Assembly: GCF_041886205.1 (NCBI RefSeq)
Contig: NZ_CP169029.1
Reading direction: 5' to 3' (one strand)
Length of the DNA: 64,000 nucleotides
Origin: Escherichia coli
Lineage (GTDB): Bacteria; Pseudomonadota; Gammaproteobacteria; Enterobacterales; Enterobacteriaceae
Of this stretch, positions 4,371-62,792 are shown piece after piece. A program made the position numbers and the translations under genes. The notes beneath the pieces were generated by a model. That model was not told the origin of the DNA, did no database searches, and saw only the letters and a program-made list of their open reading frames with translations. How positions within the stretch are numbered: the stretch's first letter is position 1; the number at the start of each line of letters is the position of its first letter.

Positions 4371-7259
4371 ATGCCCCGCAGCACCTGGTTCAAAGCATTA
4401 TTGTTGTTTGTTGCCCTTTGGGCACCCTTAAGTCAGGCAGAAACGGGATGGCAGCCGATTCAGGAAACCATCCGTAAAAGTGATAAAGATAACCGCCAGT
4501 ATCAGGCTATACGTCTGGATAACGGTATGGTGGTCTTGCTGGTTTCTGATCCGCAGGCGGTTAAATCGCTCTCGGCGCTGGTGGTGCCCGTTGGGTCGCT
4601 GGAAGATCCCGAGGCGTACCAGGGGCTGGCACATTACCTTGAACATATGAGTCTGATGGGGTCGAAAAAGTACCCGCAGGCTGACAGTCTGGCCGAATAT
4701 CTCAAAATGCACGGCGGCAGTCACAATGCCAGCACGGCACCGTATCGCACGGCTTTCTATCTGGAAGTTGAGAACGACGCCTTGCCCGGTGCGGTAGACC
4801 GCCTGGCGGACGCTATTGCAGAACCCTTGCTCGACAAGAAATACGCCGAACGTGAACGTAATGCAGTGAATGCCGAATTAACCATGGCGCGTACGCGTGA
4901 CGGGATGCGCATGGCGCAGGTCAGCGCAGAAACCATTAACCCGGCACACCCCGGTTCAAAGTTTTCTGGTGGTAACCTCGAAACTTTAAGCGACAAACCT
5001 GGTAATCCGGTGCAGCAGGCGCTGAAAGATTTCCACGAGAAGTACTATTCCGCCAATCTGATGAAGGCGGTTATTTACAGCAATAAACCGCTGCCGGAGT
5101 TGGCAAAAATGGCGGCGGACACCTTTGGTCGCGTGCCGAACAAAGAGAGCAAAAAACCGGAAATCACCGTGCCGGTAGTCACCGACGCGCAAAAGGGCAT
5201 TATCATTCATTACGTCCCGGCGCTGCCGCGTAAAGTGTTGCGCGTAGAGTTTCGTATTGATAACAACTCGGCGAAATTCCGTAGCAAAACCGATGAATTG
5301 ATTACCTATCTGATTGGTAATCGCAGCCCAGGTACACTTTCCGACTGGCTGCAAAAGCAGGGATTAGTTGAGGGCATTAGCGCCAACTCCGATCCTATCG
5401 TCAACGGCAACAGCGGCGTATTAGCGATCTCTGCGTCTTTAACCGATAAAGGTCTGGCGAATCGCGATCAGGTTGTGGCGGCTATTTTTAGCTACCTCAA
5501 TTTGTTACGTGAAAAAGGGATCGATAAACAATACTTCGATGAACTGGCGAATGTGCTGGATATCGACTTCCGTTATCCGTCAATCACCCGTGATATGGAT
5601 TACGTCGAATGGCTGGCAGATACCATGATTCGCGTTCCTGTTGAGCATACGCTGGATGCAGTCAATATTGCCGATCGGTACGATGCTAAAGCAGTAAAGG
5701 AACGTCTGGCGATGATGACGCCGCAGAATGCGCGTATCTGGTATATCAGCCCGAAAGAGCCGCACAACAAAACGGCTTACTTTGTCGATGCGCCGTATCA
5801 GGTCGATAAAATCAGCGCACAAACTTTCGCCGACTGGCAGAAAAAAGCCGCCGACATTGCGCTCTCTTTGCCAGAGCTTAACCCTTATATTCCTGACGAT
5901 TTCTCGCTGATTAAGTCAGACAAGAAATATGACCATCCAGAGCTGATTGTTGATGAGTCGAATCTGCGCGTGGTGTATGCGCCAAGCCGTTATTTTGCCA
6001 GCGAGCCAAAAGCCGATGTCAGCCTGATTTTGCGTAATCCGAAAGCCATGGACAGCGCCCGCAATCAGGTGATGTTTGCGCTCAATGATTATCTCGCAGG
6101 GCTGGCGCTTGATCAGTTAAGCAACCAGGCGTCGGTTGGTGGCATAAGTTTTTCCACCAACGCTAACAACGGCCTTATGGTTAATGCTAATGGTTACACC
6201 CAGCGTCTGCCGCAGCTGTTCCAGGCATTGCTGGAAGGCTACTTTAGCTATACCGCCACGGAAGATCAGCTTGAGCAGGCGAAGTCCTGGTATAACCAGA
6301 TGATGGATTCCGCAGAAAAGGGTAAAGCGTTTGAGCAGGCGATTATGCCCGCGCAGATGCTCTCGCAAGTGCCGTACTTCTCGCGAGATGAACGGCGTAA
6401 AATTTTGCCCTCCATTACGTTGAAAGAGGTGCTGGCCTATCGCGACGCCTTAAAATCAGGGGCTCGACCAGAGTTTATGGTTATCGGCAACATGACCGAG
6501 GCCCAGGCAACAACGCTGGCACGCGATGTGCAAAAACAGTTGGGCGCTGATGGTTCAGAGTGGTGTCGAAACAAAGATGTAGTGGTCGATAAAAAACAAT
6601 CCGTCATCTTTGAAAAAGCCGGTAACAGCACCGACTCCGCACTGGCAGCGGTATTTGTACCGACTGGCTACGATGAATACACCAGCTCAGCCTATAGCTC
6701 TCTGTTGGGGCAGATCGTACAGCCGTGGTTCTACAATCAGTTGCGTACCGAAGAACAATTGGGCTATGCCGTGTTTGCGTTTCCAATGAGCGTGGGGCGT
6801 CAGTGGGGCATGGGCTTCCTTTTGCAAAGCAATGATAAACAGCCTTCATTCTTGTGGGAGCGTTACAAGGCGTTTTTCCCAACCGCAGAGGCAAAATTGC
6901 GAGCGATGAAGCCAGATGAGTTTGCGCAAATCCAGCAGGCGGTAATTACCCAGATGCTGCAGGCACCGCAAACGCTCGGCGAAGAAGCATCGAAGTTAAG
7001 TAAAGATTTCGATCGCGGCAATATGCGCTTCGATTCGCGTGATAAAATCGTGGCCCAGATAAAACTGCTGACGCCGCAAAAACTTGCTGATTTCTTCCAT
7101 CAGGCGGTGGTCGAGCCGCAAGGCATGGCTATTCTGTCGCAGATTTCCGGTAGCCAAAATGGGAAAGCCGAATATGTGCATCCTGAAGGCTGGAAAGTGT
7201 GGGAGAACGTCAGCGCGTTGCAGCAAACAATGCCCCTGATGAGTGAAAAGAATGAGTGA
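4371..7259 (+). CDS. ptrA: protease III (pitrilysin), periplasmic M16 zinc metalloprotease (962 aa)
   Basis: 962 aa with signal peptide MPRSTWFKALLLFVALWAPLSQA and the inverted zinc motif HYLEH in the N-terminal region; located between recC and recB. Confidence 0.95.
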   Translation: MPRSTWFKALLLFVALWAPLSQAETGWQPIQETIRKSDKDNRQYQAIRLDNGMVVLLVSDPQAVKSLSALVVPVGSLEDPEAYQGLAHYLEHMSLMGSKKYPQADSLAEYLKMHGGSHNASTAPYRTAFYLEVENDALPGAVDRLADAIAEPLLDKKYAERERNAVNAELTMARTRDGMRMAQVSAETINPAHPGSKFSGGNLETLSDKPGNPVQQALKDFHEKYYSANLMKAVIYSNKPLPELAKMAADTFGRVPNKESKKPEITVPVVTDAQKGIIIHYVPALPRKVLRVEFRIDNNSAKFRSKTDELITYLIGNRSPGTLSDWLQKQGLVEGISANSDPIVNGNSGVLAISASLTDKGLANRDQVVAAIFSYLNLLREKGIDKQYFDELANVLDIDFRYPSITRDMDYVEWLADTMIRVPVEHTLDAVNIADRYDAKAVKERLAMMTPQNARIWYISPKEPHNKTAYFVDAPYQVDKISAQTFADWQKKAADIALSLPELNPYIPDDFSLIKSDKKYDHPELIVDESNLRVVYAPSRYFASEPKADVSLILRNPKAMDSARNQVMFALNDYLAGLALDQLSNQASVGGISFSTNANNGLMVNANGYTQRLPQLFQALLEGYFSYTATEDQLEQAKSWYNQMMDSAEKGKAFEQAIMPAQMLSQVPYFSRDERRKILPSITLKEVLAYRDALKSGARPEFMVIGNMTEAQATTLARDVQKQLGADGSEWCRNKDVVVDKKQSVIFEKAGNSTDSALAAVFVPTGYDEYTSSAYSSLLGQIVQPWFYNQLRTEEQLGYAVFAFPMSVGRQWGMGFLLQSNDKQPSFLWERYKAFFPTAEAKLRAMKPDEFAQIQQAVITQMLQAPQTLGEEASKLSKDFDRGNMRFDSRDKIVAQIKLLTPQKLADFFHQAVVEPQGMAILSQISGSQNGKAEYVHPEGWKVWENVSALQQTMPLMSEKNE

Positions 7260-10200: not shown

Positions 10201-10794
10201 TCGCAGTGGGAACCGGTATTGACCGAGTGGATCACGGCTGTCCTCCAGGCACCTCTCAATGGAACGGGTGTTAGCCTGAGTCAGCTTTCCGACCGCGATA
10301 AACAGGTGGAGATGGAGTTTTACCTGCCGATTAGCGAACCGCTCATCGCCAGCCAGCTTGATGCACTAATTCGCCAGTTTGACCCGCTATCTGCTGGCTG
10401 CCCGCCGCTGGAGTTCATGCAGGTACGTGGCATGTTAAAAGGCTTTATCGACCTGGTGTTCCGCCACGAAGGGCGTTATTACCTGCTCGACTATAAATCC
10501 AACTGGTTGGGTGAAGACAGTTCGGCTTACACCCAACAGGCTATGGCGGCGGCGATGCAGGCACACCGCTATGATTTGCAATATCAGCTTTATACCCTGG
10601 CGCTACACCGTTATCTGCGCCATCGCATTGCTGATTACGACTATGATCGTCACTTTGGCGGCGTTATCTATCTGTTCCTGCGTGGCGTTGATAAAGAACA
10701 TCCGCAACAAGGGATTTACACAACCCGACCCAACGCCGGGTTGATTGCCCTGATGGATGAGATGTTTGCCGGTATGACCCTGGAGGAGGCGTAA
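7252..10794 (+). CDS. recB: exodeoxyribonuclease V beta subunit RecB (helicase-nuclease, 1180 aa)
   Basis: Internal ATG at 7252 gives [31 protein letters not shown] with Walker A GTGKT; overlaps the ptrA stop; length matches RecB. Confidence 0.96.
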
Positions 10795-12620
10795 TGAAAT
10801 TGCAAAAGCAATTACTGGAAGCTGTGGAGCACAAACAGCTACGCCCGCTGGATGTGCAATTTGCCCTGACCGTGGCGGGAGATGAACATCCTGCCGTCAC
10901 CCTCGCGGCGGCACTGTTAAGTCATGATGCCGGAGAGGGACACGTCTGTTTGCCGCTTTCACGACTGGAAAATAACGAGGCGTCGCATCCGCTGTTGGCG
11001 ACCTGTGTCAGTGAAATCGGTGAGCTACAAAATTGGGAAGAATGCTTGCTGGCTTCTCAAGCGGTCAGCAGGGGAGATGAACCCACGCCGATGATCCTCT
11101 GTGGCGATCGTCTTTATTTGAATCGCATGTGGTGTAACGAGCGGACGGTAGCGCGCTTCTTCAATGAGGTGAATCATGCCATTGAGGTTGATGAAGCTCT
11201 ACTGGCGCAAACCCTGGACAAACTTTTTCCAGTAAGCGATGAAATTAACTGGCAAAAAGTTGCAGCGGCAGTGGCGCTGACGCGGCGGATCTCGGTGATT
11301 TCCGGCGGCCCAGGCACCGGTAAAACGACCACCGTGGCGAAGTTGCTGGCAGCGTTAATTCAAATGGCCGACGGCGAACGCTGCCGTATCCGTCTGGCTG
11401 CACCAACGGGTAAAGCTGCCGCGCGCTTAACCGAATCTCTCGGCAAGGCTTTGCGACAGTTACCGCTGACCGATGAACAAAAGAAACGCATTCCGGAAGA
11501 TGCCAGCACTTTGCACCGATTGCTGGGCGCGCAGCCGGGTAGCCAGCGTTTACGTCATCATGCCGGTAACCCGCTGCATCTTGATGTGCTGGTGATAGAT
11601 GAAGCGTCAATGATCGATCTGCCTATGATGTCGAGACTGATCGACGCCTTGCCAGATCATGCGCGAGTGATCTTTCTCGGCGATCGTGATCAACTGGCCT
11701 CGGTTGAGGCTGGGGCTGTGCTGGGCGATATCTGCGCTTATGCCAACGCGGGCTTTACCGCCGAGCGTGCCAGGCAGCTAAGCCGCCTGACGGGGACTCA
11801 CGTTCCGGCAGGAACTGGCACAGAAGCGGCATCTTTGCGCGACAGTCTCTGCCTGCTGCAAAAAAGCTATCGTTTCGGCAGCGATTCTGGCATTGGTCAG
11901 TTAGCTGCGGCGATCAACCGTGGTGATAAAACGACAGTGAAAACCGTTTTTCAGCAGGATTTTACTGATATCGAAAAACGACTTTTACAGAGCGGCGAAG
12001 ATTATATTGCGATGCTTGAGGAAGCTCTTGCGGGTTATGGACGTTATCTGGATCTGCTGCAAGCGCGTGCCGAGCCGGATTTAATCATTCAGGCGTTCAA
12101 TGAGTACCAACTTTTGTGCGCCCTGCGGGAAGGGCCGTTTGGCGTGGCTGGACTGAATGAGCGAATTGAGCAGTTTATGCAACAGAAGCGCAAAATTCAT
12201 CGTAATCCGCACTCTCGTTGGTACGAAGGCCGACCGGTGATGATTGCCCGTAATGACAGCGCGCTTGGGTTGTTTAATGGCGATATCGGTGTCGCTCTGG
12301 ATCGCGGGCAGGGGACGCGCGTCTGGTTTGCGATGCCGGACGGCAATATTAAGTCTGTGCAACCGAGTCGCTTGCCAGAGCACGAAACTACGTGGGCGAT
12401 GACGGTACATAAATCGCAGGGATCGGAGTTCGACCATGCGGCGTTGATTTTGCCGAGCCAACGCACGCCGGTAGTAACGCGAGAGCTGGTTTATACCGCG
12501 GTGACCCGCGCGCGTCGCCGTCTGTCGCTGTATGCCGATGAGCGCATATTAAGTGCGGCAATCGCCACTCGTACTGAGCGGCGCAGTGGTCTGGCGGCGT
12601 TGTTTAGTTCACGGGAATAA
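10794..12620 (+). CDS. recD: exodeoxyribonuclease V alpha subunit RecD (608 aa)
   Basis: 608 aa, Walker [11 protein letters not shown]; start ATG overlaps the recB stop (TAATG) by 1 nt. Confidence 0.96.
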
Positions 12621-15498: not shown

Positions 15499-15507
15499 TG
15501 TTTTTAA

Positions 15508-15540
15508 TTTATTCAATGAATTTATGTTTCATTGAATAAA
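15508..15540. repeat. perfect 13-bp AT-rich inverted repeat (tttattcaatgaa / ttcattgaataaa, 7-nt loop) 10 bp after the amiC stop
   Basis: Read directly from sequence; lies at the left edge of the accessory island. Confidence 0.5.
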
Positions 15541-15689
15541 TATTATTTACATAAATGTTGAACGATGGTTTTGTGACTGCTGTCGAATATTTGAATATCG
15601 GCTTAAAAAATAAGCCTGTCATCTCTTTTATTAAGCACAATTCCGTGTAAGGTATACGCATTAGTTAATTATCTTGTAACTGTTAAATC

Positions 15690-15744
15690 AGGCAAGGCAA
15701 TGTTTGAAGTAATTATTACTTCTGACATGCCTTGCCTTTTTTTT
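15690..15744 (+). terminator. leader stem-loop plus U8 tract upstream of the antiterminator gene; candidate conditional (RAT-associated) terminator
   Basis: Outer stem aggcaaggca (15690-15699) pairs with tgccttgcct (15728-15737); inner palindrome gaagtaat-t-attacttc (15706-15722); followed by 8 T (15737-15744); ends 12 nt before RBS gggag and ATG 15757. Confidence 0.6.
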
Positions 15745-15756
15745 GGGAGCCATGGA

Positions 15757-16581
15757 ATGATCATCGAAAAAGTCATGAACAATAATTGTGTACAGGCATC
15801 GGTGAACGGACAGGAGGTTATCATTTCTGGGCCTGGCGTTGGTTACAATAAAAAATATGGTATGTCGGTCCCTGAGCATCCTGCAAACCGGATTTTTTAT
15901 GTCAGAAATGAGCAAAAAAATAAACTCTACAAATTGATTGAGCATGTGGGTATTGAGTATATTTTTGTTGCCGAAAAGATAGTGCATTATGCGGAGAGTA
16001 ATCTCGAAAAAAAACTCAATCCATCGCTACTACTGATTCTTGCTGATCACATTTCGAATGCAATATCCCGAGTCGTCTCAGGCATACAAATTAATAATGT
16101 TTTCCTTGAGGAAATCAAAGCGTTGTACAAAGCAGAGTATGCAATAAGTCGTGATGCATTAACAATCATTAATGAGCAATTTAGCGTTCAACTACCGGAT
16201 GATGAGATTGGTTTTATAGCATTGCATATTTTAAATAATTATGAAAATTCAGTTGATTATGAATCAGTAAGGATCATTGAGCTGTCTCAAAAAATCACGG
16301 AGCTTATTGAAGTTGTTTATAACAGAAGGGTGGACAGAAGTTCATTTAACTACTCCAGATTTATGATGCACCTTAAATATTTTTCTAGTCGTGTGTTATG
16401 TAATGAAAAAATAAAACAGAAAAATATTGGTGATATCTATGAGCAGTTTCTTGAAAAAGATTTTCAGTTACAACGTGCCATTCATGAAATTGAAAGATAT
16501 CTGTACGCAACTTTTAAATATGATTTGATTCTGGAAGAGAAACTATATCTTTCTATTCGCATCAAAGTATTAATGGACTAA
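15757..16581 (+). CDS. BglG/LicT-family transcriptional antiterminator (CAT RNA-binding domain + PRD domains), ~274 aa
   Basis: N-terminus MIIEKVMNNNCVQASVNGQEVIISGPGVGYNKK is the typical CAT-domain start; ATG 15757 is preferred over the track start 15700 because of RBS gggag and because 15700 lies inside the leader hairpin. Confidence 0.85.
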   Translation: MIIEKVMNNNCVQASVNGQEVIISGPGVGYNKKYGMSVPEHPANRIFYVRNEQKNKLYKLIEHVGIEYIFVAEKIVHYAESNLEKKLNPSLLLILADHISNAISRVVSGIQINNVFLEEIKALYKAEYAISRDALTIINEQFSVQLPDDEIGFIALHILNNYENSVDYESVRIIELSQKITELIEVVYNRRVDRSSFNYSRFMMHLKYFSSRVLCNEKIKQKNIGDIYEQFLEKDFQLQRAIHEIERYLYATFKYDLILEEKLYLSIRIKVLMD

Positions 16582-16612
16582 TTATACATAACATTTTCAT
16601 GAGATAACCAGT

Positions 16613-18193
16613 ATGAAACAAAAGAAAGCCTGGAGTTTTTTTCAGAGCCTGGGGAAGGCATTTATGTATCCCATCGCTCTGTTAAGTGTATGTGGTATGA
16701 TGTTAGGGCTGGGAAGTGGTTTAGCCAGCGATGATATGGGAAAATTCATTCCAGTGTTGGCTATTCCGTTAATTAAAACCATACTTGATTTTATTGTTAG
16801 CCTTGGTTTGTTTGCCTTCGTTAATTTACCTGTATTGTTTGCGATAGCTATACCTTTGGGATTATTAAAAGAGAAAGATGATAAAGCCTATGGCGCTTTT
16901 TCTGGCTTAATTGGCTTTATGGCGATGCATCTTGGAACGAACTTTTATCTTAAACAGCACGACTTATTGGTAGCTGCTGACCAAATGTCGACACATGGGC
17001 AAACCATCATACTCGGGATCCAGTCCTACAATACCAGCGTGTTGGGTGGGATTGTGGCAGGGTTATTAGTCGCCAGCATGTATAAAAAGATCGTTAACTT
17101 ACGTATTCCTGAATCATTAGGGTTTTATAGTGGCCCACGCCTTGTGCCTATCATTACACTGATTGTGATGAGTGGATTTGGTCTGTTCATTCCTTTTATC
17201 TGGCCGCCATTTTTCAATCTTTTCATGCTCATTGGTCACTGGATTTCAACTTCCGGTCCTGTTGGTTATTTCTTCTATGCTGTTGCCGAACGCGTGACGA
17301 TACCTTTTGGCTTAAATCACTTGGTGACATCAGTTTTCCGCTTTACCCCAATCGGCGGATCGGCAGTGATTGGCGGTGAAGAGTATTACGGCACCCTGAA
17401 CATGTTTATGGCATACGTCAAAGAGAATGCGGTCATTCCGCTGGATTTGGCGGGGAAAATGGAGCAGGGCAAACTGATGATTCAGTATGGTCTGGCTGGA
17501 GCCGCGCTGGCGATGTATCGCACTGCTCATGCTCAAAACAGAAGGGCTATCAAAGCATTGCTGATTTCCGGTGTGCTCACGGTAATTATTGGCGGCGTCA
17601 GCGAGCCGATTGAATTTCTGTTCTTATTTGTCAGCCCGCTGTTGTTTGTCTTCCATGCCTTTATGAATGGATTGGCTAACATGGTTCTGCCATATATGGG
17701 CGTGAAGATGGGCTTTACTGGCGATCTGATTCAATTTATTAGCTTTGGTGTCTTACGTGGCACAAGAACGGGATGGCCATTAGCGGTATGTGTTGAAGTG
17801 GCTTATTTCTTCATTTATTACTTTGTGTTCCGTTGGACCATTCTCAAATTTAACCTGATGACTGTAGGCCGTGAAGAGTCCAGTCCTGTCACGCTGAACG
17901 CTCACGAAGAAACTGCAATAGCTAACATCCCAGTTCATGATAAATCAGAGTTGCAGGCAGCGGAGCAAATGGTTAAGGCTCTGGGTGGTAAAGAAAATAT
18001 TAAATCACTGGATAATTGTGTAACTCGTTTGCGTTTAACTATCGCGGATATGGGATTGATAGATGAGGCTGCAATAAAAAGGGCCGGAGGAATTGCGGTT
18101 GTGAAACTTGATCAAAATACCTTACAAGTCATTATCGGTACAAAAGTCATCGCCCTACGTCGGGATATGGATAATTACATGGGGATATGTTGA
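16613..18193 (+). CDS. PTS system glucose-family EIICB component (MalX/PtsG-like), 526 aa, no EIIA domain
   Basis: Multi-span membrane domain followed by C-terminal EIIB with the cysteine motif NCVTRLRLTIADMG; N-terminus MKQKKAWSFFQSLGKAFMYPIALL resembles PtsG/MalX. Confidence 0.9.
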   Translation: MKQKKAWSFFQSLGKAFMYPIALLSVCGMMLGLGSGLASDDMGKFIPVLAIPLIKTILDFIVSLGLFAFVNLPVLFAIAIPLGLLKEKDDKAYGAFSGLIGFMAMHLGTNFYLKQHDLLVAADQMSTHGQTIILGIQSYNTSVLGGIVAGLLVASMYKKIVNLRIPESLGFYSGPRLVPIITLIVMSGFGLFIPFIWPPFFNLFMLIGHWISTSGPVGYFFYAVAERVTIPFGLNHLVTSVFRFTPIGGSAVIGGEEYYGTLNMFMAYVKENAVIPLDLAGKMEQGKLMIQYGLAGAALAMYRTAHAQNRRAIKALLISGVLTVIIGGVSEPIEFLFLFVSPLLFVFHAFMNGLANMVLPYMGVKMGFTGDLIQFISFGVLRGTRTGWPLAVCVEVAYFFIYYFVFRWTILKFNLMTVGREESSPVTLNAHEETAIANIPVHDKSELQAAEQMVKALGGKENIKSLDNCVTRLRLTIADMGLIDEAAIKRAGGIAVVKLDQNTLQVIIGTKVIALRRDMDNYMGIC

Positions 18194-19401
18194 TGGATAT
18201 TTTTAATACCTCAATTTCTCGTAAAGGAACATATTGCACACAATGGGACTTTTGTGAAGACAGATTTGGTGTAAAAGATGTATTACCATTCTCTATTTCA
18301 GATATGGATCTTCCGATACCGGAAGCTATCATCAGAACATTAAAAAAACGTCTGGAACACCCGATTTTAGGGTACAGTCGTTGGCAGCATGATGACTATC
18401 TGAATTCGATAGTCAATTGGTATCATCAACAATATAAAACAGAGATTCAACCAGAATGGATCACCTATAGCCCAAGCGTGATGTATTCAATATCTAAGGC
18501 AATAGAAATATTGACATTGAATGGAGATAATATTCTCATTTTCACGCCTGTTTATAACGCATTTTTTGATGTGATTAAGCATAATGGTCGAAACATGCTA
18601 ACAACCTCTTTGATGAAAGAAAATGGGAGAGGCTACGTTATCAACTGGCAAGACTTTGAGCTTAAAATTAAAAGCGCGAAGATGGTGTTATTATGTAATC
18701 CTCATAACCCGACAGGAACGGTCTGGTCGGAAGACGATCTTCACAGAATCGCAGCATGCTGTGCAAGGCATAATATTTGGTTATGTTCAGATGAAATACA
18801 TAGTGATTTTGTTTTTAATCATAGTTTCACGTCAGCGCTAACAATAAAAGATGACAAAGTGGTGGTGTTTAATTCGATTTCGAAAACATTTAATGTTCCT
18901 GCGCTAACCGGATCATATATGATTTCAACTGACGATAATTTTAATCATAAGTTCAGAACGATATCGAGGTATCGCGATTTCGTAAACTCCCCATCAGTAC
19001 TGAATGTAATTGCGACCATTGTTGCCTATAATGAATGTGAAGAATGGTTAAAGTCGTTAAAGGTACATATTGCCTCTAACATTCAATTTACTTTGCAGTA
19101 TTTAAATGAAAATATTCCGGAATTGATCGTATGGCCAGCTGAGGGCTGCTATTTTTCGTGGGTTGATTGCTCGGCCCTTGGTTATCCCTTTGATAAATTT
19201 TACCGTCGATTAATTAACGAAGGGAGAGTAGGTATTATGGCGGGGCATGTTTATGGTACTGAAGGAGAGGGCTATCTGCGTCTTAATCTGGCCTGCAGTC
19301 GAGAAAAATTATATATGGGGCTTGCGCGCCTTGCGAGTGTAATTAAAAATATTAATCAGGAAAAAGAAAATGAACAATACGGATCTTATCCATCTTATTA
19401 A
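18187..19401 (+). CDS. PLP-dependent aminotransferase class I/II fold protein, MalY/PatB-like cystathionine beta-lyase (C-S lyase), 404 aa
   Basis: N-terminal RKGTYCTQWDF...FGVKDVLPFSISDMDLP and the SISKTFN lysine motif are typical of MalY/PatB; start overlaps the PTS stop. Confidence 0.85.
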   Translation: MLMDIFNTSISRKGTYCTQWDFCEDRFGVKDVLPFSISDMDLPIPEAIIRTLKKRLEHPILGYSRWQHDDYLNSIVNWYHQQYKTEIQPEWITYSPSVMYSISKAIEILTLNGDNILIFTPVYNAFFDVIKHNGRNMLTTSLMKENGRGYVINWQDFELKIKSAKMVLLCNPHNPTGTVWSEDDLHRIAACCARHNIWLCSDEIHSDFVFNHSFTSALTIKDDKVVVFNSISKTFNVPALTGSYMISTDDNFNHKFRTISRYRDFVNSPSVLNVIATIVAYNECEEWLKSLKVHIASNIQFTLQYLNENIPELIVWPAEGCYFSWVDCSALGYPFDKFYRRLINEGRVGIMAGHVYGTEGEGYLRLNLACSREKLYMGLARLASVIKNINQEKENEQYGSYPSY

Positions 19402-19966
19402 ACGTTTTATGCGTAACGAACATAAAGCAGTAGAAGAGGTTATTGATTCCCCCCTTTCGGAAGTCGCGAATTTAATTAAAATATTACAATCTTGCCAGGG
19501 AAAAGTTGTTTTTATTGGTGTTGGGAAATCTGGCATTATTGCCAGAAAACTTGCTGCAACATTTGCCAGCACCGGAACTCCCTCGTTTTTTGTTCACGGT
19601 ACGGAAGCGGTACACGGCGACCTTGGGATGGTGGCGAAAGACGATGTTGTTATTCTTATTTCAAACAGTGGTGAGACGGCGGAAATCCTGGCGACACTGC
19701 CTAGTTTGAAAAAAATGGGTAATTATTTGATCTCTTTTACCCGCAGTCATCACTCATCGCTTGCGATAAGTTGTGATTTATCTGTTGAAATCCCCGTCAA
19801 AAGTGAGGCGGATAATTTAGGTTTAGCACCGTCATGCTCGTCTACTGTTGTTCTGGTTGTTGGTGATGCGGTGGCGCTTGCACTCTCTGAATTGAAAAAA
19901 TTTACTCGTGCTGATTTCGGCTTATATCATCCAGGAGGTGCACTCGGCATTAAAGCAAATTCATAA
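19370..19966 (+). CDS. single SIS-domain sugar-phosphate isomerase, KpsF/GutQ-like but lacking CBS domains (198 aa)
   Basis: VVFIGVGKSGIIARKLAATFASTGTPSFFVHGTEAVHGDLGMV...ILISNSGET matches the arabinose-5-phosphate isomerase SIS domain; overlaps the preceding gene by about 30 nt. Confidence 0.8.
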   Translation: MNNTDLIHLIKRFMRNEHKAVEEVIDSPLSEVANLIKILQSCQGKVVFIGVGKSGIIARKLAATFASTGTPSFFVHGTEAVHGDLGMVAKDDVVILISNSGETAEILATLPSLKKMGNYLISFTRSHHSSLAISCDLSVEIPVKSEADNLGLAPSCSSTVVLVVGDAVALALSELKKFTRADFGLYHPGGALGIKANS

Positions 19967-20037
19967 TTTCAAAGTATAAATACAGTAACCGGTCACGCCA
20001 TCTTTTGGGGTGGCGTTCATTGAAGTGAGTGTCAGCT

Positions 20038-20985
20038 ATGAAAAATGTTCTGGTCACCGTCCCCAACTTTTCAGCACGCTGTGTTTCCGCCAGCAAGTTG
20101 CTAAGAGAGAATAATTTTAATCTTATTATTAAGAATAATGTGGAGCATCTGCTTAAATCAGAATCCACTGCATTACGAGAATCTATTTGCGCGGTCATCG
20201 CCGGAAAAGATTGTTATCAGGCGGACACGCTATCATTGCTGCCTGGTGTGAAAATAATATCAAGATTCGGGACGGGGATAGATAATATTGATCTTCGTGC
20301 AGCACAACAATCCGGTATTGTAGTCAATAATGCGGTTGGGATTAATTCAAATGCTGTCGCGGAATTTATCATTGGACTTATCTTCGCGAGCATGAGAAAT
20401 ATTCCAGGCAGCTATCATGCGATGCAAAATGGCTACTGGGGTGAGTCGCATGGCTATGAATTACAAGGCAAACGGATTGGCATGGTTGGCTACGGCAATA
20501 TAGGTAAAACCCTGGCAAAAAGGTTATCCGGTTTTGATGTTGAGCTTTTAGCTTATGACAAACAACCCGATTATCAGGTTGCTGACAAAGTTGGAGTTCA
20601 GTTTGTATCAATTGAAGATATCTTTATGCAGTCGCATGTCATCATTGTTCTTTTGCCTTTTTCTCCTGAGCTGGAGAACTTCATTAGTCATAAATATTTG
20701 TCGATGATGCGCAATGGTGCTCTAATCATCAATGCCGCAAGGGGAAAGTTGCTGGATGAGGGCGCTTTACTACAGGTGATTGAAGAACGAAATGTGTTTG
20801 CGGCGCTGGATGTGTTTAGCTCTGAACCGTTGGCGCAATTTAGCCCACTGCTACATGCCAAAAATATCATTACAACGCCGCATATTGCGGCCGCCACCGT
20901 TGAGTCATACCAGCAAACCGGTACACACGTTGCCCAGTCGATAATTGATTACTTCGCAGGAAGGGAGATAAAAAACGTGTTGTGA
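20038..20985 (+). CDS. D-isomer-specific 2-hydroxyacid dehydrogenase family NAD-binding protein (~315 aa)
   Basis: Rossmann motif GKRIGMVGYGNIGKTLAKRL and the family pattern ...LLPFSPELENFIS...; ATG 20038 preferred over the GTG at 20029 (uncertain). Confidence 0.8.
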   Translation: MKNVLVTVPNFSARCVSASKLLRENNFNLIIKNNVEHLLKSESTALRESICAVIAGKDCYQADTLSLLPGVKIISRFGTGIDNIDLRAAQQSGIVVNNAVGINSNAVAEFIIGLIFASMRNIPGSYHAMQNGYWGESHGYELQGKRIGMVGYGNIGKTLAKRLSGFDVELLAYDKQPDYQVADKVGVQFVSIEDIFMQSHVIIVLLPFSPELENFISHKYLSMMRNGALIINAARGKLLDEGALLQVIEERNVFAALDVFSSEPLAQFSPLLHAKNIITTPHIAAATVESYQQTGTHVAQSIIDYFAGREIKNVL

Positions 20986-21011
20986 GTTCAGCGAACGAAG
21001 TTTTTAAATAC

Positions 21012-21047
21012 AAAAAAACCGCAATTTGTGGAACACATTGCGGTTTA
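21012..21047 (-). terminator. rho-independent terminator of the tRNA-fMet operon (8-bp GC-containing stem followed by U7 on the minus strand)
   Basis: Stem accgcaat (21018-21025) pairs with attgcggt (21037-21044); the plus-strand A7 at 21012-21018 reads as U7 after the hairpin on the minus strand; 17 bp from the metV 3' end. Confidence 0.7.
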
Positions 21048-21063
21048 TCAGCATTCTAAGTAT

Positions 21064-21140
<77 letters not shown>

Positions 21141-21172
21141 TCACCGTACTGCTTTATTTCATCAAATTTGAT

Positions 21173-21249
<77 letters not shown>

Positions 21250-21282
21250 TCACCGTACTGCTTTACTTCATCAAATTTTAAT

Positions 21283-21359
<77 letters not shown>

Positions 21360-23598: not shown

Positions 23599-24042
23599 TT
23601 AAACCTGCTTCGTCGCAGCGATAATCGCCTCGCTTAACGCATTTAACCCCTGGCTGCGTGAGGCGCTAAGTTGCGCACGCAATCCCAGCTCATCAAACAA
23701 TGCCAGCGGCGACTGTGCCTGCAATTCGGCGGCGGTTTTCCCCTCAACGGCAGTCAACAGCACCGCCAGCAGGCCGCGCACAATGCGCCCTTCGCTGTCG
23801 CCAAAGAAGTGCATTTTACCGTTTTCAGTCACGGTATATCCCAGCCAGACGCGGTTTTCGCATCCGGCAATCTCTTTAGCCTGCGCTTTTAACTCGTCTG
23901 GCAAAGCCGGAAGCTGTTTCCCCAGCATGATCAACTGGCGATATTTATCTTCCCATTGCGACAACGGAGCGAAGGTATTGCGTAACGTTTCTGCGGTTAC
24001 GGTTGTGCCGAACGGATGTCCGGCGAATTGCGGGTTCGTCAT
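23599..24042 (-). CDS. csdE: sulfur acceptor protein CsdE (SufE-like, 147 aa)
   Basis: 147 aa minus-strand ORF immediately downstream of csdA, start overlapping the csdA stop. Confidence 0.92.
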
Positions 24043-25247
24043 TAATCCACCAATAATTCCAGCGCGCGGTCAACGGCATTCACCAGCGCATCCACATCAC
24101 TCTTTGTATTATATGGCGCAAATGAGGCGCGCAGTGTGCCGGTTACGCCTAATTCTGCCAGTAGCGGCTGAGCGCAATGTTGCCCGGCCCGCAAGGCAAT
24201 ACCGTACTCCGCCAGTAGCGTCACCATATCGCTGTGATGAACGCCAGCAAAATCAAAGGCCAGCAGGCTGGAATCCTGGCAGCGGAATGAACGAAAGCCT
24301 GGACGTTTCGCCAGCGCTTCTTCTGCAAGCGTTGCTAAGCTACGGCTCCAGCTTTCGGCCTGGTTGATATCGTAATCTGCCAGCCATTCCAGCGCCGCGC
24401 TTAATCCTATGACGCCAGCGACATTTGGCGTTCCTGCTTCCAGTTTCCACGGCGCAGATTGAGTGGTGAAACCGTCAAAACTCACTTCGTGAATCATTTT
24501 GCCGCCACCCAGCCAGGGCGACATCGCTTCCAGCAGTTCTGATTTGCCATACAGCACGCCGATACCCGTCGGGCCATACAGTTTGTGACCAGAGAAAGCA
24601 TAGAAATCGATATCCAGTTGCTGAACATCTGCGGGGAAATGCACCGCCCCCTGAGCACCATCAACCATCACCACCATCCCGGCTGAATGAGCAAAGGTAA
24701 TCGCTCGCGCCAGATCCGGGCAACCGCCAGTAACGTTCGACATCTGACCCAACGCCAGAATCCGACTACGGGGAGTAATCAGTTCTGGCAACAAATCGAC
24801 ACCCGGCAGTCGCTGCGCATTAAGCGGCAATTTAACCACTTTGGCTCCAGTTTGTTGGGCGACCATCAGCCAGGGGACGAGGTTGGCGTGGTGTTCTGCC
24901 ACGCTGACAATAATCTCATCGCCCGGTTGCAGACGCGGACGCGCATAGCATTGTGCAACCATGTTGATGGATTCAGTGGTGCCGCGCGTCCAGACGATAG
25001 TTTTATCATCCGGTGCATTCAGTAATTGCGCCACTTTCTCTCGTGCAGCTTCATAACGCGCGGTCAGGCGTTGGGCTTCGGCAAACTGGCTGCGATGGAC
25101 GTTTCCGGCGCTCAGGCTGTAAAACTGTCGGGTGGCTTCAACCACGGCTTCAGGTTTAAGCGCGGTCGCGGCGCTGTCGAGATAGACGCCCGCATCCTGT
25201 AGAGCGGGAAACTGGGCGCGAAACTGCGCGGGATTAAAAACGTTCAT
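24042..25247 (-). CDS. csdA: cysteine sulfinate desulfinase / cysteine desulfurase CsdA (PLP-dependent, 401 aa)
   Basis: Trimmed to the ATG at 25245-25247 (RBS aggag) giving [32 protein letters not shown], the known CsdA N-terminus. Confidence 0.94.
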
Positions 25248-29696: not shown

Positions 29697-29697
29697 T

Positions 29698-34969: not shown

Positions 34970-34972
34970 ATT

Positions 34973-49031: not shown

Positions 49032-49388
49032 GAGTCAGACAACGAAGTGAACATCAGGATGATGACACTTCTGCAGGACACACCAGGATGGTGTTTCAGG
49101 GAAAGGCTTCTGGATGAAGCGAAGAGGATGACGCAGGACGCGTTAAAGGACACCTCCAGGATGGAGAATGAGAACCGGTCAGGATGATTCGGTGGGTCAG
49201 GAAGGCCAGGGACACTTCAGGATGAAGTATCACATCGGGGTGGTGTGAGCAGGAAGCAATAGTTCAGGATGAACGATTGGCCGCAAGGCCAGAGGAAAAG
49301 TTGTCAAGGATGAGCAGGGAGCAACAAAAGTAGCTGGAATGCTGCGAAACGAACCGGGAGCACTGTGAATACAGTGCTCCCTTTTTTT
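49032..49388 (+). ncRNA. csrB: CsrB small RNA (CsrA-sequestering sRNA with repeated GGA motifs)
   Basis: Starts GAGTCAGACAACGAAGTGAACATCAGGATGATGACAC; carries about 16-18 GGA motifs, many as CAGGATG; ends with hairpin GGGAGCACTGTGAATACAGTGCTCCC plus U7 (49356-49388). Confidence 0.92.
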
Positions 49389-49433
49389 ATTCCTGCTATC
49401 CTTCGCGGCAGTTTTTCTTATTGAGGTTGCTTT

Positions 49434-49763
49434 ATGACCACTCATGACCGCGTTCGTCTCCAGTTGCAGACGCTTGAAGCGTTACTGCGTGAACATCAGC
49501 ACTGGCGAAACGATGAACCCCAGCCGCATCAATTTAATAGTACCCAACCGTTCTTTATGGACACCATGGAACCACTGGAGTGGTTGCAGTGGGTGCTGAT
49601 CCCGCGAATGCACAATTTGTTAAATAACAACCAGCCGTTACCGGGTGCTTTTGCCGTTGCACCCTATTATGAAATGGCGCTGGCGACGGACCATCCGCAA
49701 CGCGCGCTTATTCTGGCTGAGCTGGAAAAACTGGATGCTCTTTTTGCGGATGATGCGAGCTAA
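49434..49763 (+). CDS. yqcC: DUF446 protein YqcC (109 aa)
   Basis: 109 aa; position between csrB and truC matches E. coli. Confidence 0.9.
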   Translation: MTTHDRVRLQLQTLEALLREHQHWRNDEPQPHQFNSTQPFFMDTMEPLEWLQWVLIPRMHNLLNNNQPLPGAFAVAPYYEMALATDHPQRALILAELEKLDALFADDAS

Positions 49764-50545
49764 TGCTGGAAATACTCTATCAGGATGAATGGCTGGTTGC
49801 GGTAAATAAACCCTCCGGCTGGCTGGTTCACCGTAGCTGGCTGGATCGCGACGAGAAAGTAGTGGTCATGCAAACCGTGCGTGACCAGATAGGCCAGCAT
49901 GTTTTTACTGCTCATCGTCTGGACCGACCAACTTCTGGTGTGTTGTTGATGGGATTATCCAGCGAGGCCGGACGGCTGCTGGCACAACAGTTTGAACAGC
50001 ACCAAATCCAGAAACGTTACCATGCGATTGTGCGCGGCTGGTTGATGGAAGAAGCGGTGCTGGATTATCCACTGGTGGAAGAACTGGACAAAATCGCTGA
50101 TAAATTTGCCCGCGAAGATAAAGGCCCGCAGCCAGCAGTGACGCATTATCGCGGTCTGGCGACCGTAGAAATGCCGGTAGCGACCGGACGTTACCCGACC
50201 ACGCGCTACGGCCTGGTGGAACTGGAGCCGAAAACCGGACGCAAACATCAGCTTCGCCGACATCTTGCCCATCTGCGTCATCCGATTATTGGCGATAGCA
50301 AACATGGCGATTTACGCCAGAATCGCAGCGGTGCTGAGCATTTTGGCCTTCAGCGGTTAATGCTACATGCCAGTCAGTTGTCATTGACGCATCCTTTTAC
50401 TGGCGAGCCGCTGACTATTCATGCGGGTCTGGACGATATCTGGATGCAGGCGTTATCACAATTTGGCTGGCGCGGTCTGCTTCCTGAAAATGAAAGGGTT
50501 GAGTTCAGTACGCCATCGGGTCAGGATGGAGAGATAAGTTCCTAA
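49763..50545 (+). CDS. truC: tRNA pseudouridine(65) synthase TruC (260 aa)
   Basis: 260 aa RluA-family pseudouridine synthase; start overlaps the yqcC stop. Confidence 0.93.
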
Positions 50546-51446: not shown

Positions 51447-52799
51447 ATGAGTTCTTTAAGTCAGGCTGCGAGCAGTGTGGAAAAACGCACGAATGCTCGT
51501 TACTGGATAGTGGTGATGTTGTTTATCGTCACATCCTTCAACTACGGCGACCGCGCTACGCTTTCTATTGCCGGTTCGGAAATGGCCAAAGATATCGGCC
51601 TTGATCCCGTGGGAATGGGCTATGTGTTCTCTGCCTTCTCATGGGCTTATGTTATCGGGCAGATCCCTGGTGGTTGGTTGCTGGATCGTTTTGGTTCAAA
51701 ACGCGTCTATTTCTGGTCGATCTTTATCTGGTCGATGTTTACCTTGCTGCAAGGCTTCGTCGATATCTTTAGTGGATTCGGCATTATCGTTGCCCTGTTT
51801 ACGCTGCGCTTCCTGGTCGGGCTTGCTGAAGCGCCATCTTTCCCCGGCAACAGTCGCATTGTTGCGGCCTGGTTTCCGGCGCAGGAAAGGGGAACGGCGG
51901 TGTCGATTTTTAACTCCGCTCAATACTTCGCAACGGTGATCTTCGCGCCGATTATGGGCTGGCTGACGCATGAAGTGGGCTGGTCACACGTCTTCTTCTT
52001 TATGGGCGGTCTGGGCATTGTCATCAGCTTTATCTGGTTGAAAGTCATCCACGAGCCAAATCAACATCCGGGGGTAAATCAGAAAGAGCTGGAGTATATC
52101 GCCGCGGGTGGCGCGCTGATCAATATGGATCAGCAAAACACCAAAGTTAAAGTGCCATTCAGCGTGAAGTGGGGACAGATCAAACAACTGCTCGGGTCAC
52201 GGATGATGATCGGCGTTTATATTGGTCAGTACTGTATCAACGCCCTGACTTACTTTTTCATTACCTGGTTCCCGGTTTATCTGGTGCAGGCGCGTGGGAT
52301 GTCGATTCTGAAAGCGGGCTTTGTGGCTTCCGTTCCGGCGGTTTGCGGTTTTATCGGCGGTGTCCTGGGTGGGATTATTTCCGACTGGCTGATGCGCCGC
52401 ACGGGATCGCTGAACATTGCGCGTAAAACACCGATCGTAATGGGCATGTTGCTGTCGATGGTGATGGTGTTCTGCAACTACGTCAACGTTGAGTGGATGA
52501 TCATCGGCTTTATGGCGCTGGCCTTCTTCGGTAAGGGCATCGGGGCGCTGGGTTGGGCAGTAATGGCAGATACCGCGCCAAAAGAGATCAGCGGTCTTTC
52601 CGGTGGCCTGTTCAACATGTTCGGTAACATTTCTGGCATCGTCACGCCAATCGCAATTGGTTATATCGTTGGCACGACTGGCTCCTTTAATGGGGCGCTG
52701 ATTTATGTTGGTGTTCATGCCTTAATCGCGGTACTGAGCTACCTGGTGCTGGTGGGCGATATCAAGCGTATCGAGCTGAAACCTGTCGCGGGGCAATAA
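51447..52799 (+). CDS. gudP: glucarate/galactarate MFS transporter GudP (450 aa)
   Basis: 450 aa MFS permease upstream of gudX-gudD. Confidence 0.92.
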
Positions 52800-52800
52800 G

Positions 52801-54141
52801 ATGACGACACAATCCAGTCCTGTTATTACTGATATGAAAGTCATTCCGGTCGCCGGACATGACAGCATGTTGCTCAATATTGGTGGTGCGCATAACGCAT
52901 ACTTCACCCGCAATATCGTGGTACTCACCGATAACGCCGGGCATACCGGCATTGGTGAAGCGCCAGGCGGAGAGGTGATTTATCAAACACTGGTCGATGC
53001 TATTCCGATGGTTCTGGGCCAGGAAGTTGCGCGACTGAATAAAGTGGTCCAGCAGGTGCATAAAGGTAATCAGGCGGCCGATTTTGATACCTTCGGTAAA
53101 GGGGCCTGGACTTTTGAATTGCGCGTTAATGCCGTGGCGGCGCTGGAAGCCGCCTTGCTTGACCTGCTAGGTAAGGCGTTGAATGTTCCGGTCTGCGAAC
53201 TGTTAGGGCCAGGCAAGCAACGCGATGCTATTACCGTCCTCGGTTATCTGTTTTATATCGGTGATCGGACCAAAACCGATCTTCCTTATCTGGACAATAC
53301 GCCGGGCAACCATGAGTGGTATCAGTTGCGGCATCAGAAAGCGATGAACAGCGAAGCCGTTGTGCGTCTGGCGGAAGCCTCACAGGATCGCTATGGCTTT
53401 AAAGATTTCAAACTTAAGGGCGGGGTGTTACCTGGCGAGCAAGAAATCGACACTGTTCGTGCATTGAAGAAAAGCTTCCCGGATGCGCGGATTACCGGTG
53501 ATCCCAATGGTGCCTGGCTGCTTGATGAAGCCATTTCTCTGTGCAAAGGGCTGAATGATGTTCTTACCTATGCCGAAGATCCATGCGGCGCAGAACAGGG
53601 CTTCTCCGGACGTGAAGTGATGGCGGAGTTTCGGCGGGCGACCGGCTTGCCCGTCGCGACTAACATGATCGCCACCAACTGGCGCGAAATGGGTCATGCG
53701 GTGATGCTCAATGCGGTAGATATTCCACTTGCCGATCCGCACTTCTGGACGCTTTCCGGTGCAGTCCGCGTGGCGCAGCTTTGCGACGACTGGGGGCTGA
53801 CCTGGGGCTGCCATTCTAATAACCATTTCGATATCTCTCTGGCGATGTTTACCCATGTGGGCGCGGCGGCACCGGGTAATCCTACCGCTATCGATACCCA
53901 CTGGATTTGGCAGGAGGGCGATTGTCGCCTGACCAAAAATCCGCTGGAGATTAAAAACGGAAAAATTGCCGTTCCTGATGCGCCCGGTCTGGGCGTGGAA
54001 CTGGACTGGGAACAGGTACAAAAGGCACATGAGGCCTATAAACGTCTGCCTGGCGGTGCGCGTAACGACGCAGGTCCGATGCAGTACCTGATCCCCGGCT
54101 GGACCTTTGACCGTAAACGTCCCGTTTTCGGCCGTCATTGA
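52801..54141 (+). CDS. gudX: glucarate dehydratase-related protein GudX (enolase superfamily, 446 aa)
   Basis: 446 aa paralog of the downstream gudD with the same motif architecture. Confidence 0.92.
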
Positions 54142-54161
54142 TTCTGAAAAAGGACATAAAT

Positions 54162-55502
54162 ATGAGTTCTCAATTTACGACGCCTGTTGTTACTGAAATG
54201 CAGGTCATCCCGGTGGCGGGTCATGACAGTATGCTGATGAATCTGAGTGGTGCACACGCACCGTTCTTTACGCGTAATATTGTGATTATCAAAGATAATT
54301 CTGGTCACACTGGCGTAGGGGAAATTCCCGGCGGCGAGAAAATCCGTAAAACGCTGGAAGATGCGATTCCGCTGGTGGTAGGTAAAACGCTGGGTGAATA
54401 CAAAAACGTTCTGACGCTGGTGCGTAATACTTTTGCCGATCGTGATGCTGGTGGGCGCGGTTTGCAGACATTTGATTTGCGTACCACTATTCATGTAGTT
54501 ACCGGGATAGAAGCGGCAATGCTGGATCTGCTGGGGCAGCATCTGGGGGTAAACGTGGCATCCCTGCTGGGCGATGGTCAACAGCGTAGCGAAGTCGAAA
54601 TGCTCGGTTATCTGTTCTTCGTCGGTAATCGCAAAGCCACACCGCTGCCGTATCAAAGCCAGCCGGATGACTCATGCGACTGGTATCGCCTGCGTCATGA
54701 AGAAGCGATGACGCCGGATGCGGTGGTGCGCCTGGCGGAAGCGGCGTATGAAAAATATGGCTTCAACGATTTCAAACTGAAAGGCGGTGTACTGGCCGGG
54801 GAAGAAGAAGCCGAGTCTATTGTGGCACTGGCGAAACGTTTCCCGCAGGCGCGTATTACGCTCGATCCTAACGGTGCCTGGTCGCTGAACGAAGCGATTA
54901 AAATTGGTAAATACCTGAAAGGGTCGCTGGCTTATGCAGAAGATCCGTGTGGTGCGGAGCAAGGTTTCTCCGGGCGTGAAGTGATGGCAGAGTTCCGTCG
55001 CGCGACTGGCCTGCCGACTGCAACCAATATGATCGCCACCGACTGGCGGCAGATGGGCCATACACTCTCGTTACAATCCGTTGATATCCCGCTGGCGGAT
55101 CCGCATTTCTGGACGATGCAAGGTTCGGTACGTGTGGCGCAAATGTGCCATGAATTTGGCCTGACCTGGGGTTCACACTCAAACAACCACTTCGATATTT
55201 CCCTGGCGATGTTTACCCATGTTGCCGCCGCTGCACCGGGTAAAATTACTGCTATTGATACGCACTGGATCTGGCAGGAAGGTAATCAGCGCCTGACCAA
55301 AGAACCGTTTGAGATCAAAGGCGGGCTGGTACAGGTGCCAGAAAAACCGGGGCTGGGTGTAGAAATCGATATGGATCAAGTGATGAAAGCCCATGAGCTG
55401 TATCAGAAACACGGGCTTGGCGCGCGTGACGATGCGATGGGAATGCAGTATCTGATTCCTGGCTGGACGTTCGATAACAAGCGCCCGTGCATGGTGCGTT
55501 AA
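54162..55502 (+). CDS. gudD: D-glucarate dehydratase GudD (enolase superfamily, 446 aa)
   Basis: Internal ATG at 54162 gives [32 protein letters not shown]; overlaps the gudX stop region. Confidence 0.94.
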
Positions 55503-62208: not shown

Positions 62209-62457
62209 ATGATCCACAGTAGCGTAAAGCGTTGGGGAAATTCACCGGCGGTGCGGATCCCGGCTACGTTAATGCAGGCGCTCAATCTGAATATTGATGA
62301 TGAAGTGAAGATTGACCTGGTGGATGGCAAATTAATTATTGAGCCAGTGCGTAAAGAGCCCGTATTTACGCTTGCTGAACTGGTCAACGACATCACGCCG
62401 GAAAACCTCCACGAGAATATCGACTGGGGAGAGCCGAAAGATAAGGAAGTCTGGTAA
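62209..62457 (+). CDS. mazE: antitoxin MazE (82 aa)
   Basis: [47 protein letters not shown], an AbrB/SpoVT-type fold. Confidence 0.95.
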
Positions 62458-62792
62458 TGGTAAGCCGATACGTACCCGATATGGGCGATCTGATTTGGGT
62501 TGATTTTGACCCGACAAAAGGTAGCGAGCAAGCCGGACATCGTCCGGCTGTTGTCCTGAGTCCGTTCATGTACAACAACAAAACAGGTATGTGTCTGTGT
62601 GTTCCTTGTACAACGCAATCAAAAGGATATCCGTTCGAAGTTGTTTTATCCGGTCAGGAACGTGATGGCGTAGCGTTAGCTGATCAAGTAAAAAGTATCG
62701 CCTGGCGGGCAAGAGGAGCAACGAAGAAAGGAACGGTTGTCCCAGAGGAATTACAACTCATTAAAGCCAAAATTAACGTACTGATTGGGTAG
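62457..62792 (+). CDS. mazF: mRNA interferase toxin MazF (ACA-specific endoribonuclease, 111 aa)
   Basis: [36 protein letters not shown]; start overlaps the mazE stop. Confidence 0.95.
   Translation: MVSRYVPDMGDLIWVDFDPTKGSEQAGHRPAVVLSPFMYNNKTGMCLCVPCTTQSKGYPFEVVLSGQERDGVALADQVKSIAWRARGATKKGTVVPEELQLIKAKINVLIG

Follow-up and report, generated by a model that had tools for sequence, protein, structure and literature searches.

Stop/start overlaps along a 64-kb window of the Escherichia coli chromosome as probable ordinary operon junctions, with corrected starts for recB and gudD

The window analyzed here, 64,000 nucleotides (nt) of the Escherichia coli chromosome (contig NZ_CP169029.1) running from ppdB to pyrG, contains a series of co-directional gene pairs in which the stop codon of one gene overlaps the start codon of the next, including pairs within a five-gene island that carries a phosphotransferase system (PTS) gene. 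An earlier note on this DNA listed nine overlapping or abutting junctions and held that the coupling inside the island indicates a single co-evolved operon. With a probability of roughly 0.85, the listed overlaps are the usual kind of junction found inside E. coli operons, no more frequent here than genome-wide and already known. Measurement of the junctions bears out eight of the nine as true overlaps; the ninth, gudX/gudD, has a 20-nt spacer. The operon within the island is supported by synteny, a shared leader and the ratios of nonsynonymous to synonymous divergence (dN/dS), but its overlaps are poor evidence for co-evolution, and only that between the PTS gene and the following MalY-like gene adds weight. 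Short stop/start overlaps and their link to coupling are textbook operon features, and all the genes involved were already annotated; none of this is new. The useful corrections are that gudX and gudD do not overlap and that recB starts at 7252, and the context gained is the prediction, on grounds independent of the overlaps, that the five genes of the island form a conserved, mobile operon under antiterminator control.

The first 25 kb of the window match E. coli chromosomes, NZ_AP045833.1 at 100%. The RefSeq annotation of that chromosome was transferred onto the window, and every gene was confirmed as an intact open reading frame (ORF), opened by a start codon and closed by its only stop. 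All co-directional junctions were then measured (n = 41 adjacent pairs, distances negative for overlaps). Ten of the 41 pairs overlap, five at −1, one at −4, two at −8, one at −16 and one at −32, and three further pairs nearly abut. These junctions, together with gudX/gudD, are as follows; free energies refer to pairing of the Shine–Dalgarno (SD) motif, and SIS denotes the SIS-domain gene of the island.

7252–7259, + strand: ptrA stop/recB start overlap, ATGAGTGA, −8 class; weak SD, −2.5 kcal/mol
10792–10796, + strand: recB stop/recD start overlap, TAATG, −1 class; strong SD GGAGGAGG within recB, −12.1 kcal/mol
18191–18195, + strand: PTS stop/MalY-like start overlap, TGATG, −1 class
19370–19401, + strand: overlap of MalY-like 3′ end and SIS 5′ end, 32 nt, −32
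24040–24044, − strand: csdA stop/csdE start overlap, TAATG, −1 class
27341–27348, + strand: ygdD stop/rlmM start overlap, ATGAATAA, −8 class
49761–49765, + strand: yqcC stop/truC start overlap, TAATG, −1 class; truC SD −3.3 kcal/mol
62455–62459, + strand: mazE stop/mazF start overlap, TAATG, −1 class
99–102, + strand: ppdB stop/ygdB start overlap, GTGA, −4 class
491–506, + strand: ygdB/ppdC overlap, 16 nt; ppdC SD −11.1 kcal/mol
52797–52803, + strand: gudP stop and gudX start, abutting, TAAGATG, +1
29694–29700, − strand: fucK stop and fucU start, abutting, TGAAATG, +1
34967–34975, + strand: ATP-binding cassette (ABC) transporter ATPase stop and permease start, TAAATTATG, +3
54139–54164, + strand: gudX stop (54139–54141), 20-nt spacer with an AAGGA SD, gudD ATG (54162–54164); no overlap

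The two pairs at the left edge, ppdB/ygdB and ygdB/ppdC, lie to the left of the range covered by the earlier list, from which gudP/gudX, fucK/fucU and ABC ATPase/permease are also missing. Seven of its nine pairs carry a canonical motif (TRATG at −1, RTGA at −4 or ATGNNTRA at −8). The exceptions are gudX/gudD, at +20, and MalY-like/SIS, which is at −32 here and at a canonical −8, or at +2, in other alleles.

In the E. coli genome as a whole, 707 of 2,987 unidirectional pairs (24%) lie between −8 and +6 nt, and the commonest distances are −4, −1 and −8 (PMC10666635). The corresponding count in the window is 11 of 41 co-directional pairs (27%; binomial p = 0.59). The junction rate equals the genome baseline, and there is therefore nothing unusual in the window. 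The accumulation of distances at −1, −4 and −8 is strongly non-random, yet it is a known genome-wide signature and nothing special to this stretch.

The island, in which MalY-like overlaps both of its neighbors, consists of the following genes, assigned by RefSeq annotation and by Pfam and NCBIfam matches.

15757–20985, + strand: five-gene island operon
15757–16581, + strand: BglG/LicT-type antiterminator (CAT_RBD, PF03123, residues 1–55; PRD, PF00874, residues 73–160)
16613–18193, + strand: MalX-like PTS enzyme IICB (EIICB; EIIC and EIIB domains)
18193–19401, + strand: PatB/MalY-family C-S lyase (MalY-like), TIGR04350
19370–19966, + strand: SIS-only KpsF/KdsD-like isomerase of 198 amino acids, without CBS domains
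20038–20985, + strand: D-2-hydroxyacid dehydrogenase

If the true starts lay downstream of the annotated ones, the overlaps would be annotation artefacts and the genes would not overlap at all. This explanation was weighed by scanning every in-frame ATG, GTG and TTG around each junction and scoring the pairing with the anti-SD sequence, and as a general account we consider it very improbable. It does hold for gudX/gudD, where the overlap requires a gudD start at TTG 54138 that is not a real start: this candidate was rejected on its SD (−1.7 kcal/mol, compared with −5.3 kcal/mol at ATG 54162). The protein read from ATG 54162 begins MSSQF..., matching residue 1 of the solved E. coli glucarate dehydratase (1EC7 and others), and Met1 so defined aligns with Met1 of the paralogue GudX. 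The SD, the N terminus in 1EC7 and the GudX alignment thus place gudD 20 nt beyond gudX, and the claimed overlap of this pair falls.

The recB start that set the left edge of the earlier list, GTG 7243, is also wrong. It opens the longest ORF but was rejected, since the solved RecB structures begin at ATG 7252, to which the N terminus MSDVA in PDB entries 1W36 and 6SJB maps. The RecB N terminus of the structures overlaps ptrA by 8 nt all the same, and recB from ATG 7252 keeps its −8 junction.

At the other junctions there is little room for a different start. For recD (ATG 10794), SIS, csdE, rlmM, truC and mazF, no start codon lies further upstream in the ORF than the annotated one. The upstream in-frame candidates, GTG 7243 for recB and ATG 18187 and TTG 18190 for MalY-like, would all produce overlaps too. 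ATG 18187 is not conserved in the other E. coli allele and lies only 1 nt from the GGGGA SD, which is too close; the MalY-like ATG within TGATG is conserved everywhere among the loci compared. The anti-SD scan of downstream in-frame starts at the eight true overlaps gave none with a clearly better SD, the only near-tie being recB TTG 7282/7288 (−3.0 kcal/mol, compared with −2.5 kcal/mol at the annotated ATG). For SIS, the sole alternative that would remove the overlap, ATG 19409 (Met14), has no SD (+1.3 kcal/mol, compared with −4.3 kcal/mol at the annotated start). The N-terminal residues of both proteins are moreover conserved without indels in Escherichia, Citrobacter and Atlantibacter, as MNNTDLIxLIKxF over the first 13 residues of SIS and as MDxFN in MalY-like. 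Alternative starts with better ribosome-binding sites, which the earlier note had named as what could remove the overlaps, thus remove gudX/gudD only.

Conservation separates the two overlaps of the island. Among seven loci in which its junctions were compared, the spacer between the antiterminator (PRD) and PTS genes is exactly 31 nt in all seven, and PTS/MalY-like is at −1 in all seven, as TGATG or TAATG. The SIS/dehydrogenase spacer varies from 66 to 73 nt and includes a conserved hairpin. MalY-like/SIS takes three forms. Citrobacter and Atlantibacter have −8 (ATGAATAA), E. whittamii shares +2 (TAAAAATG) with E. coli E41-1, and the window shares −32 with E. coli E69. Outside the island, the csdA/csdE junction of Atlantibacter is TAAATG, at distance 0, compared with TAATG in the window (locus L007, 10940–10990). 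The overlaps were proposed earlier as features to follow in homologous loci; PTS/MalY-like is preserved there, MalY-like/SIS is not, and csdA/csdE shifts to 0 in Atlantibacter.

A single T-to-C change, from ATGAATAAC to ATGAACAAT, separates the window from the −8 form. In SIS the change is silent (Asn); in MalY-like it converts the stop TAA to CAA and adds eight codons up to the next TAA, and this extension lies past the end of the PatB model match. Because only one change separates the two forms, the 32-nt overlap is a recent lineage-specific stop-loss, in which an ancestral −8 form ATGAATAA would have lost its stop, and not a mark of co-evolution. One stop-loss mutation can create a long overlap, and a long overlap is therefore no sign of co-evolution. 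At this boundary the alleles keep SIS starting at a fixed point near the end of MalY-like, whose stop wanders. In junction-specific searches, the window-type junction was found in about 266 E. coli genomes (258 at ≥99% and 8 at 95–99% identity) and the +2 type in about 1288. About 123 further E. coli genomes match the window-type query at 92% identity; the one inspected, strain E597, has the −8 form.

It could be proposed that the three states of MalY-like/SIS are not neutral and set different ratios of SIS isomerase to lyase through the efficiency of reinitiation, although we regard this as unlikely. If this were true, the alleles would form a natural series showing how translational coupling depends on distance, and lineage-specific tuning of an uncharacterized PTS sugar pathway would be implied.

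The case for the operon does not depend on the overlaps. Synteny, occurrence at two tRNA sites, a conserved shared leader and purifying selection on its genes argue that the island is one inherited, transferable operon, as far as comparison of sequences can indicate. Of 5426 complete E. coli genomes, 1689 carry it, and most of these fall into two classes by divergence (261 at ≥99% identity and 1422 at 90–95%). When the MalY-like protein was scanned against one genome per species, the same five genes in the same order were found in E. whittamii, Citrobacter sp. MGH106, Citrobacter sp. FP75, Atlantibacter hermannii and a third E. coli allele. The island lies between amiC and the tRNA-Met/mltA region in Escherichia and Atlantibacter and between fadE/yafV-like genes and tRNA-Asp, dnaQ and rnhA in Citrobacter; its presence at two different tRNA sites shows that the five genes travel together. 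At 25 distant MalY/PatB loci (archaea, Firmicutes, Bacteroidota and others), no homologues of the PTS, SIS, PRD or dehydrogenase genes of the island were found within 5 kb. All finds of the five-gene unit come from close relatives within the enterobacteria, and the distant loci are uninformative on junction conservation.

All five genes are under purifying selection (dN/dS 0.03–0.18). The MalY-like protein evolves two to three times faster than its operon neighbors at similar synonymous divergence, with 85% amino-acid identity between E. coli alleles compared with 96–99% for PTS and SIS, and the synonymous divergence (dS) of the island between E. coli alleles, about 0.35–0.5, is as high as that between the window and E. 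whittamii. In Atlantibacter hermannii the dehydrogenase is cut to 132 codons (L007, 6850–7248) and is probably a pseudogene.

A single leader, which combines a hairpin like a ribonucleic antiterminator (RAT) with a terminator, precedes the first gene, and a second hairpin and a tRNA cluster follow the last.

15668–15745, + strand: island leader, with RAT-like hairpin at about 15672–15697, terminator hairpin at 15690–15737 and U8 at 15737–15744, from folding
21016–21046, no strand assigned: hairpin between the last island gene and the convergent tRNA-Met cluster, −14.2 kcal/mol, z = −4.2
21064–21359, − strand: tRNA-Met genes (metZWV cluster), directly after the operon

The leader folds at −32.2 kcal/mol (z = −4.7), and the 3′ half of the RAT-like hairpin, CAGGCAAGGC, doubles as the 5′ arm of the long terminator hairpin. 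The hairpin sequence presumably resembles the RAT consensus. Across the seven loci the element is conserved: 92.5% of cells are paired, and two pairs are compensatory. Read from its longest ORF, the first gene would begin at ATG 15700; because this codon falls inside the leader hairpin, the antiterminator start is placed at 15757. The leader terminator was located by reading and folding the sequence; a consensus promoter and terminator scan of the island, which missed it owing to the long stem-loop, returned weak intragenic matches only, fewer than in shuffled sequence. The U-tract is T8 in the window and T9 in the otherwise identical NZ_AP045833.1, where one T in the run 15737–15744 is the sole length difference, and this difference decides whether the spurious longer ORF from ATG 15700 stays open.

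At the other end, the hairpin at 21016–21046 has a good T-run on the minus strand and a short one on the plus strand, and it is probably a shared terminator that ends the operon. In the SIS/dehydrogenase spacer (19985–20032), a conserved GTAACCGGTC box precedes a hairpin at about 19996–20015 (ACGCCAyC...GrTGGCGT), whose stem is kept and whose loop is changed in Citrobacter and Atlantibacter. This hairpin has no U-tract and may serve transcript processing or stability, or act as a weak attenuator.

In the preferred model, the island would be transcribed as a single five-gene operon that is switched by its own BglG/LicT-type antiterminator, acting on the RAT hairpin that overlaps the leader terminator. 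This leader layout is canonical for the BglG/SacY/LicT family of antiterminators (model summarized in PMC9981650). Like the operons of that family (E. coli bglGFB, B. subtilis sacXY, licT), the island has a first gene with CAT_RBD and PRD domains, an overlap between a RAT-like hairpin and a terminator, and a presumably cognate PTS EII gene further along the operon. It differs in that its PTS is of the glucose/maltose (MalX-like) class rather than a beta-glucoside or sucrose EII, that no second terminator lies in the fixed 31-nt spacer between antiterminator and PTS, and that its antiterminator falls below the LicT cut-off (the LicT model aligns over residues 1–270 with a score of 230.5, compared with a curated cut-off of 300).

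The PTS protein is likewise below the malX cut-offs (537.7 compared with 632.2 for TIGR02004; 522.1 compared with 665 for NF007509), whereas the MalY-like protein exceeds its own (TIGR04350, 368.9 compared with 340), with the PatB family model matching residues 4–384 of 402. In K-12 malX-malY, a MalX-like EIICB is also followed at once by a PatB/MalY-family lyase dependent on pyridoxal phosphate. The K-12 pair is regulated by the LacI-type MalI, in contrast to the antiterminator of the island, whose PTS scores below the malX models and which has two extra enzymes, the SIS isomerase and the 2-hydroxyacid dehydrogenase.

The slot occupied by the operon is named the metV island in the literature, and the metV genomic island of the uropathogenic strain CFT073 lies in the same place beside the tRNA-Met cluster. 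Mosberg et al. (2011, J Bacteriol 193:2981) reportedly described a CBS-less arabinose-5-phosphate isomerase, c3406, in that island. By this description, c3406 can be likened to the 198-residue SIS-only protein of the window, which matches KdsD/KpsF models over the SIS domain (KdsD model positions 36–201 of 328); some database sources name members of its cluster arabinose-5-phosphate isomerase. In the common E. coli allele, seen in E. coli E41-1, a VasL-domain type VI secretion gene (L003, 7287–8561) comes after the operon in place of tRNA-Met. In the window the module stands alone, with tRNA-Met directly downstream and no type VI secretion genes; of the metV island, the window thus has the sugar module but not the secretion system.

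The functional meaning of the junctions can be gauged from published experiments. Native overlapping pairs were strictly coupled in 13 of 14 cases, comprising nine of nine from Haloferax volcanii and four of five from E. coli, the latter by termination–reinitiation with a variable role for the SD (PMC6728339); a check of the supplementary files of that paper for E. coli rows found none. Distances between −8 and +6 nt are common in E. coli and are treated as indicative of termination–reinitiation, and when gaps were opened by upstream stop codons, reinitiation was cut by 40–80% at +14 nt and almost abolished at +38 nt (PMC10666635). The same close pairs are enriched for subunits of complexes (PMC10666635), which fits RecB/RecD, CsdA/CsdE and MazE/MazF. 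The window shares with the E. coli pairs of Huber et al. 2019 (PMC6728339) and 2023 (PMC10666635) the motifs TAATG/TGATG, GTGA and ATGNNTRA and a similar frequency at −8 to +6 nt (27% compared with 24% genome-wide). The 32-nt MalY-like/SIS and 16-nt ygdB/ppdC overlaps lie outside the efficient range of those studies, and gudX/gudD (+20) is not a pair of this kind; unlike the pairs of Huber et al., none of the window's pairs is among those tested by experiment.

By analogy, a ribosome that finishes the upstream gene at a −1, −4 or −8 junction, and possibly at +1 to +3, would most likely begin again at the neighboring start codon, with more or less assistance from an SD motif inside the upstream gene. 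Coupling at the −1 and −8 junctions of the window is plausible on these grounds. A shared transcript would fit the overlaps, which leave no space for a terminator and a promoter. The 32-nt overlap would be a poor candidate for reinitiation because it is outside the −8 to +6 nt range (PMC10666635); SIS here probably starts de novo at its own AGGA SD. With a 20-nt spacer and an SD of its own, gudD would most likely be initiated independently of gudX.

Several points weigh against reading the overlaps as coupled junctions of operons. For every pair, co-transcription and coupling are inferred. The overlapping pair bioBF, one of the five tested in E. coli, showed no coupling (PMC6728339), and geometry alone is no proof of it. 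The strength of the SD motifs is very uneven, from −12.1 kcal/mol for recD to −2.5 for recB and −3.3 for truC, and the shares of reinitiation and de novo initiation are therefore likely to vary from pair to pair. The comparison across genera covered the island junctions and csdA/csdE. For the island leader, the RAT-like assignment draws on position, fold and presumed likeness to the RAT consensus, and an Rfam scan gave five matches at gathering score, none of them to a RAT family.

Some of the same observations would be expected if the overlaps had arisen neutrally, without functional coupling, as stop and start codons turned over in a compact genome, each downstream gene being translated independently from its own SD. 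MalY-like/SIS drifts between +2, −8 and −32 within one species while purifying selection holds both genes, csdA/csdE is at 0 in Atlantibacter instead of −1, the strong internal SDs of recD and ppdC (−12.1 and −11.1 kcal/mol) could drive de novo initiation, and bioBF demonstrates overlap without coupling. However, neutral turnover does not readily explain why the distances cluster sharply at −1, −4 and −8 instead of being spread, or why PTS/MalY-like stays at −1 in seven of seven loci even where its stop changes from TGA to TAA. It is further opposed by the strict coupling of 13 of 14 native pairs (PMC6728339) and by the weak SDs of several downstream genes, such as recB and truC, and it appears improbable as an account of the whole set. 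Ordinary operon junctions remain the preferred reading.

One further copy of the island was encountered in E. coli HS-02 (NZ_CP172818.1, assembly GCF_044647545.1; L004, 3360–7471), where a 4.1-kb unannotated, ORF-free stretch occupies the slot corresponding to 15499–21063 of the window. Its plus strand is almost without C (A 1289, T 1697, G 1013, C 113). Where the E41-1 allele has C, this copy mostly has T or lacks the base, and agreement at the remaining bases is poor too. The flanking amiC and mltA are perfect, and this is the only such case among the 1689 island-bearing genomes. The copy is probably an assembly or base-calling artefact, although the strand-specific loss of C is odd.

The gene order of the window is ppdB, recC-ptrA-recB-recD, argA, amiC, the five-gene island, three tRNA-Met genes, mltA, tcdA, csdEA and gcvA, continuing with ygdD-rlmM, the fuc locus, sdaCB, queF, syd, yqcC-truC-yqcA, gudPXD, barA, rlmD-relA-mazEFG and pyrG. 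Two small RNAs are in their expected places, GcvB at 25683–25888 (− strand), adjoining gcvA, and CsrB at 49032–49391 (+ strand), between syd and yqcC. The fucose locus (33470–39676) lacks fucP, and the gap between fucI and fucA is filled by a sugar ABC transporter (ATPase, permease and binding protein), an FGGY pentulose kinase and a LacI/FruR-like regulator; this fucP-less arrangement is present in 383 of 5426 complete E. coli genomes.

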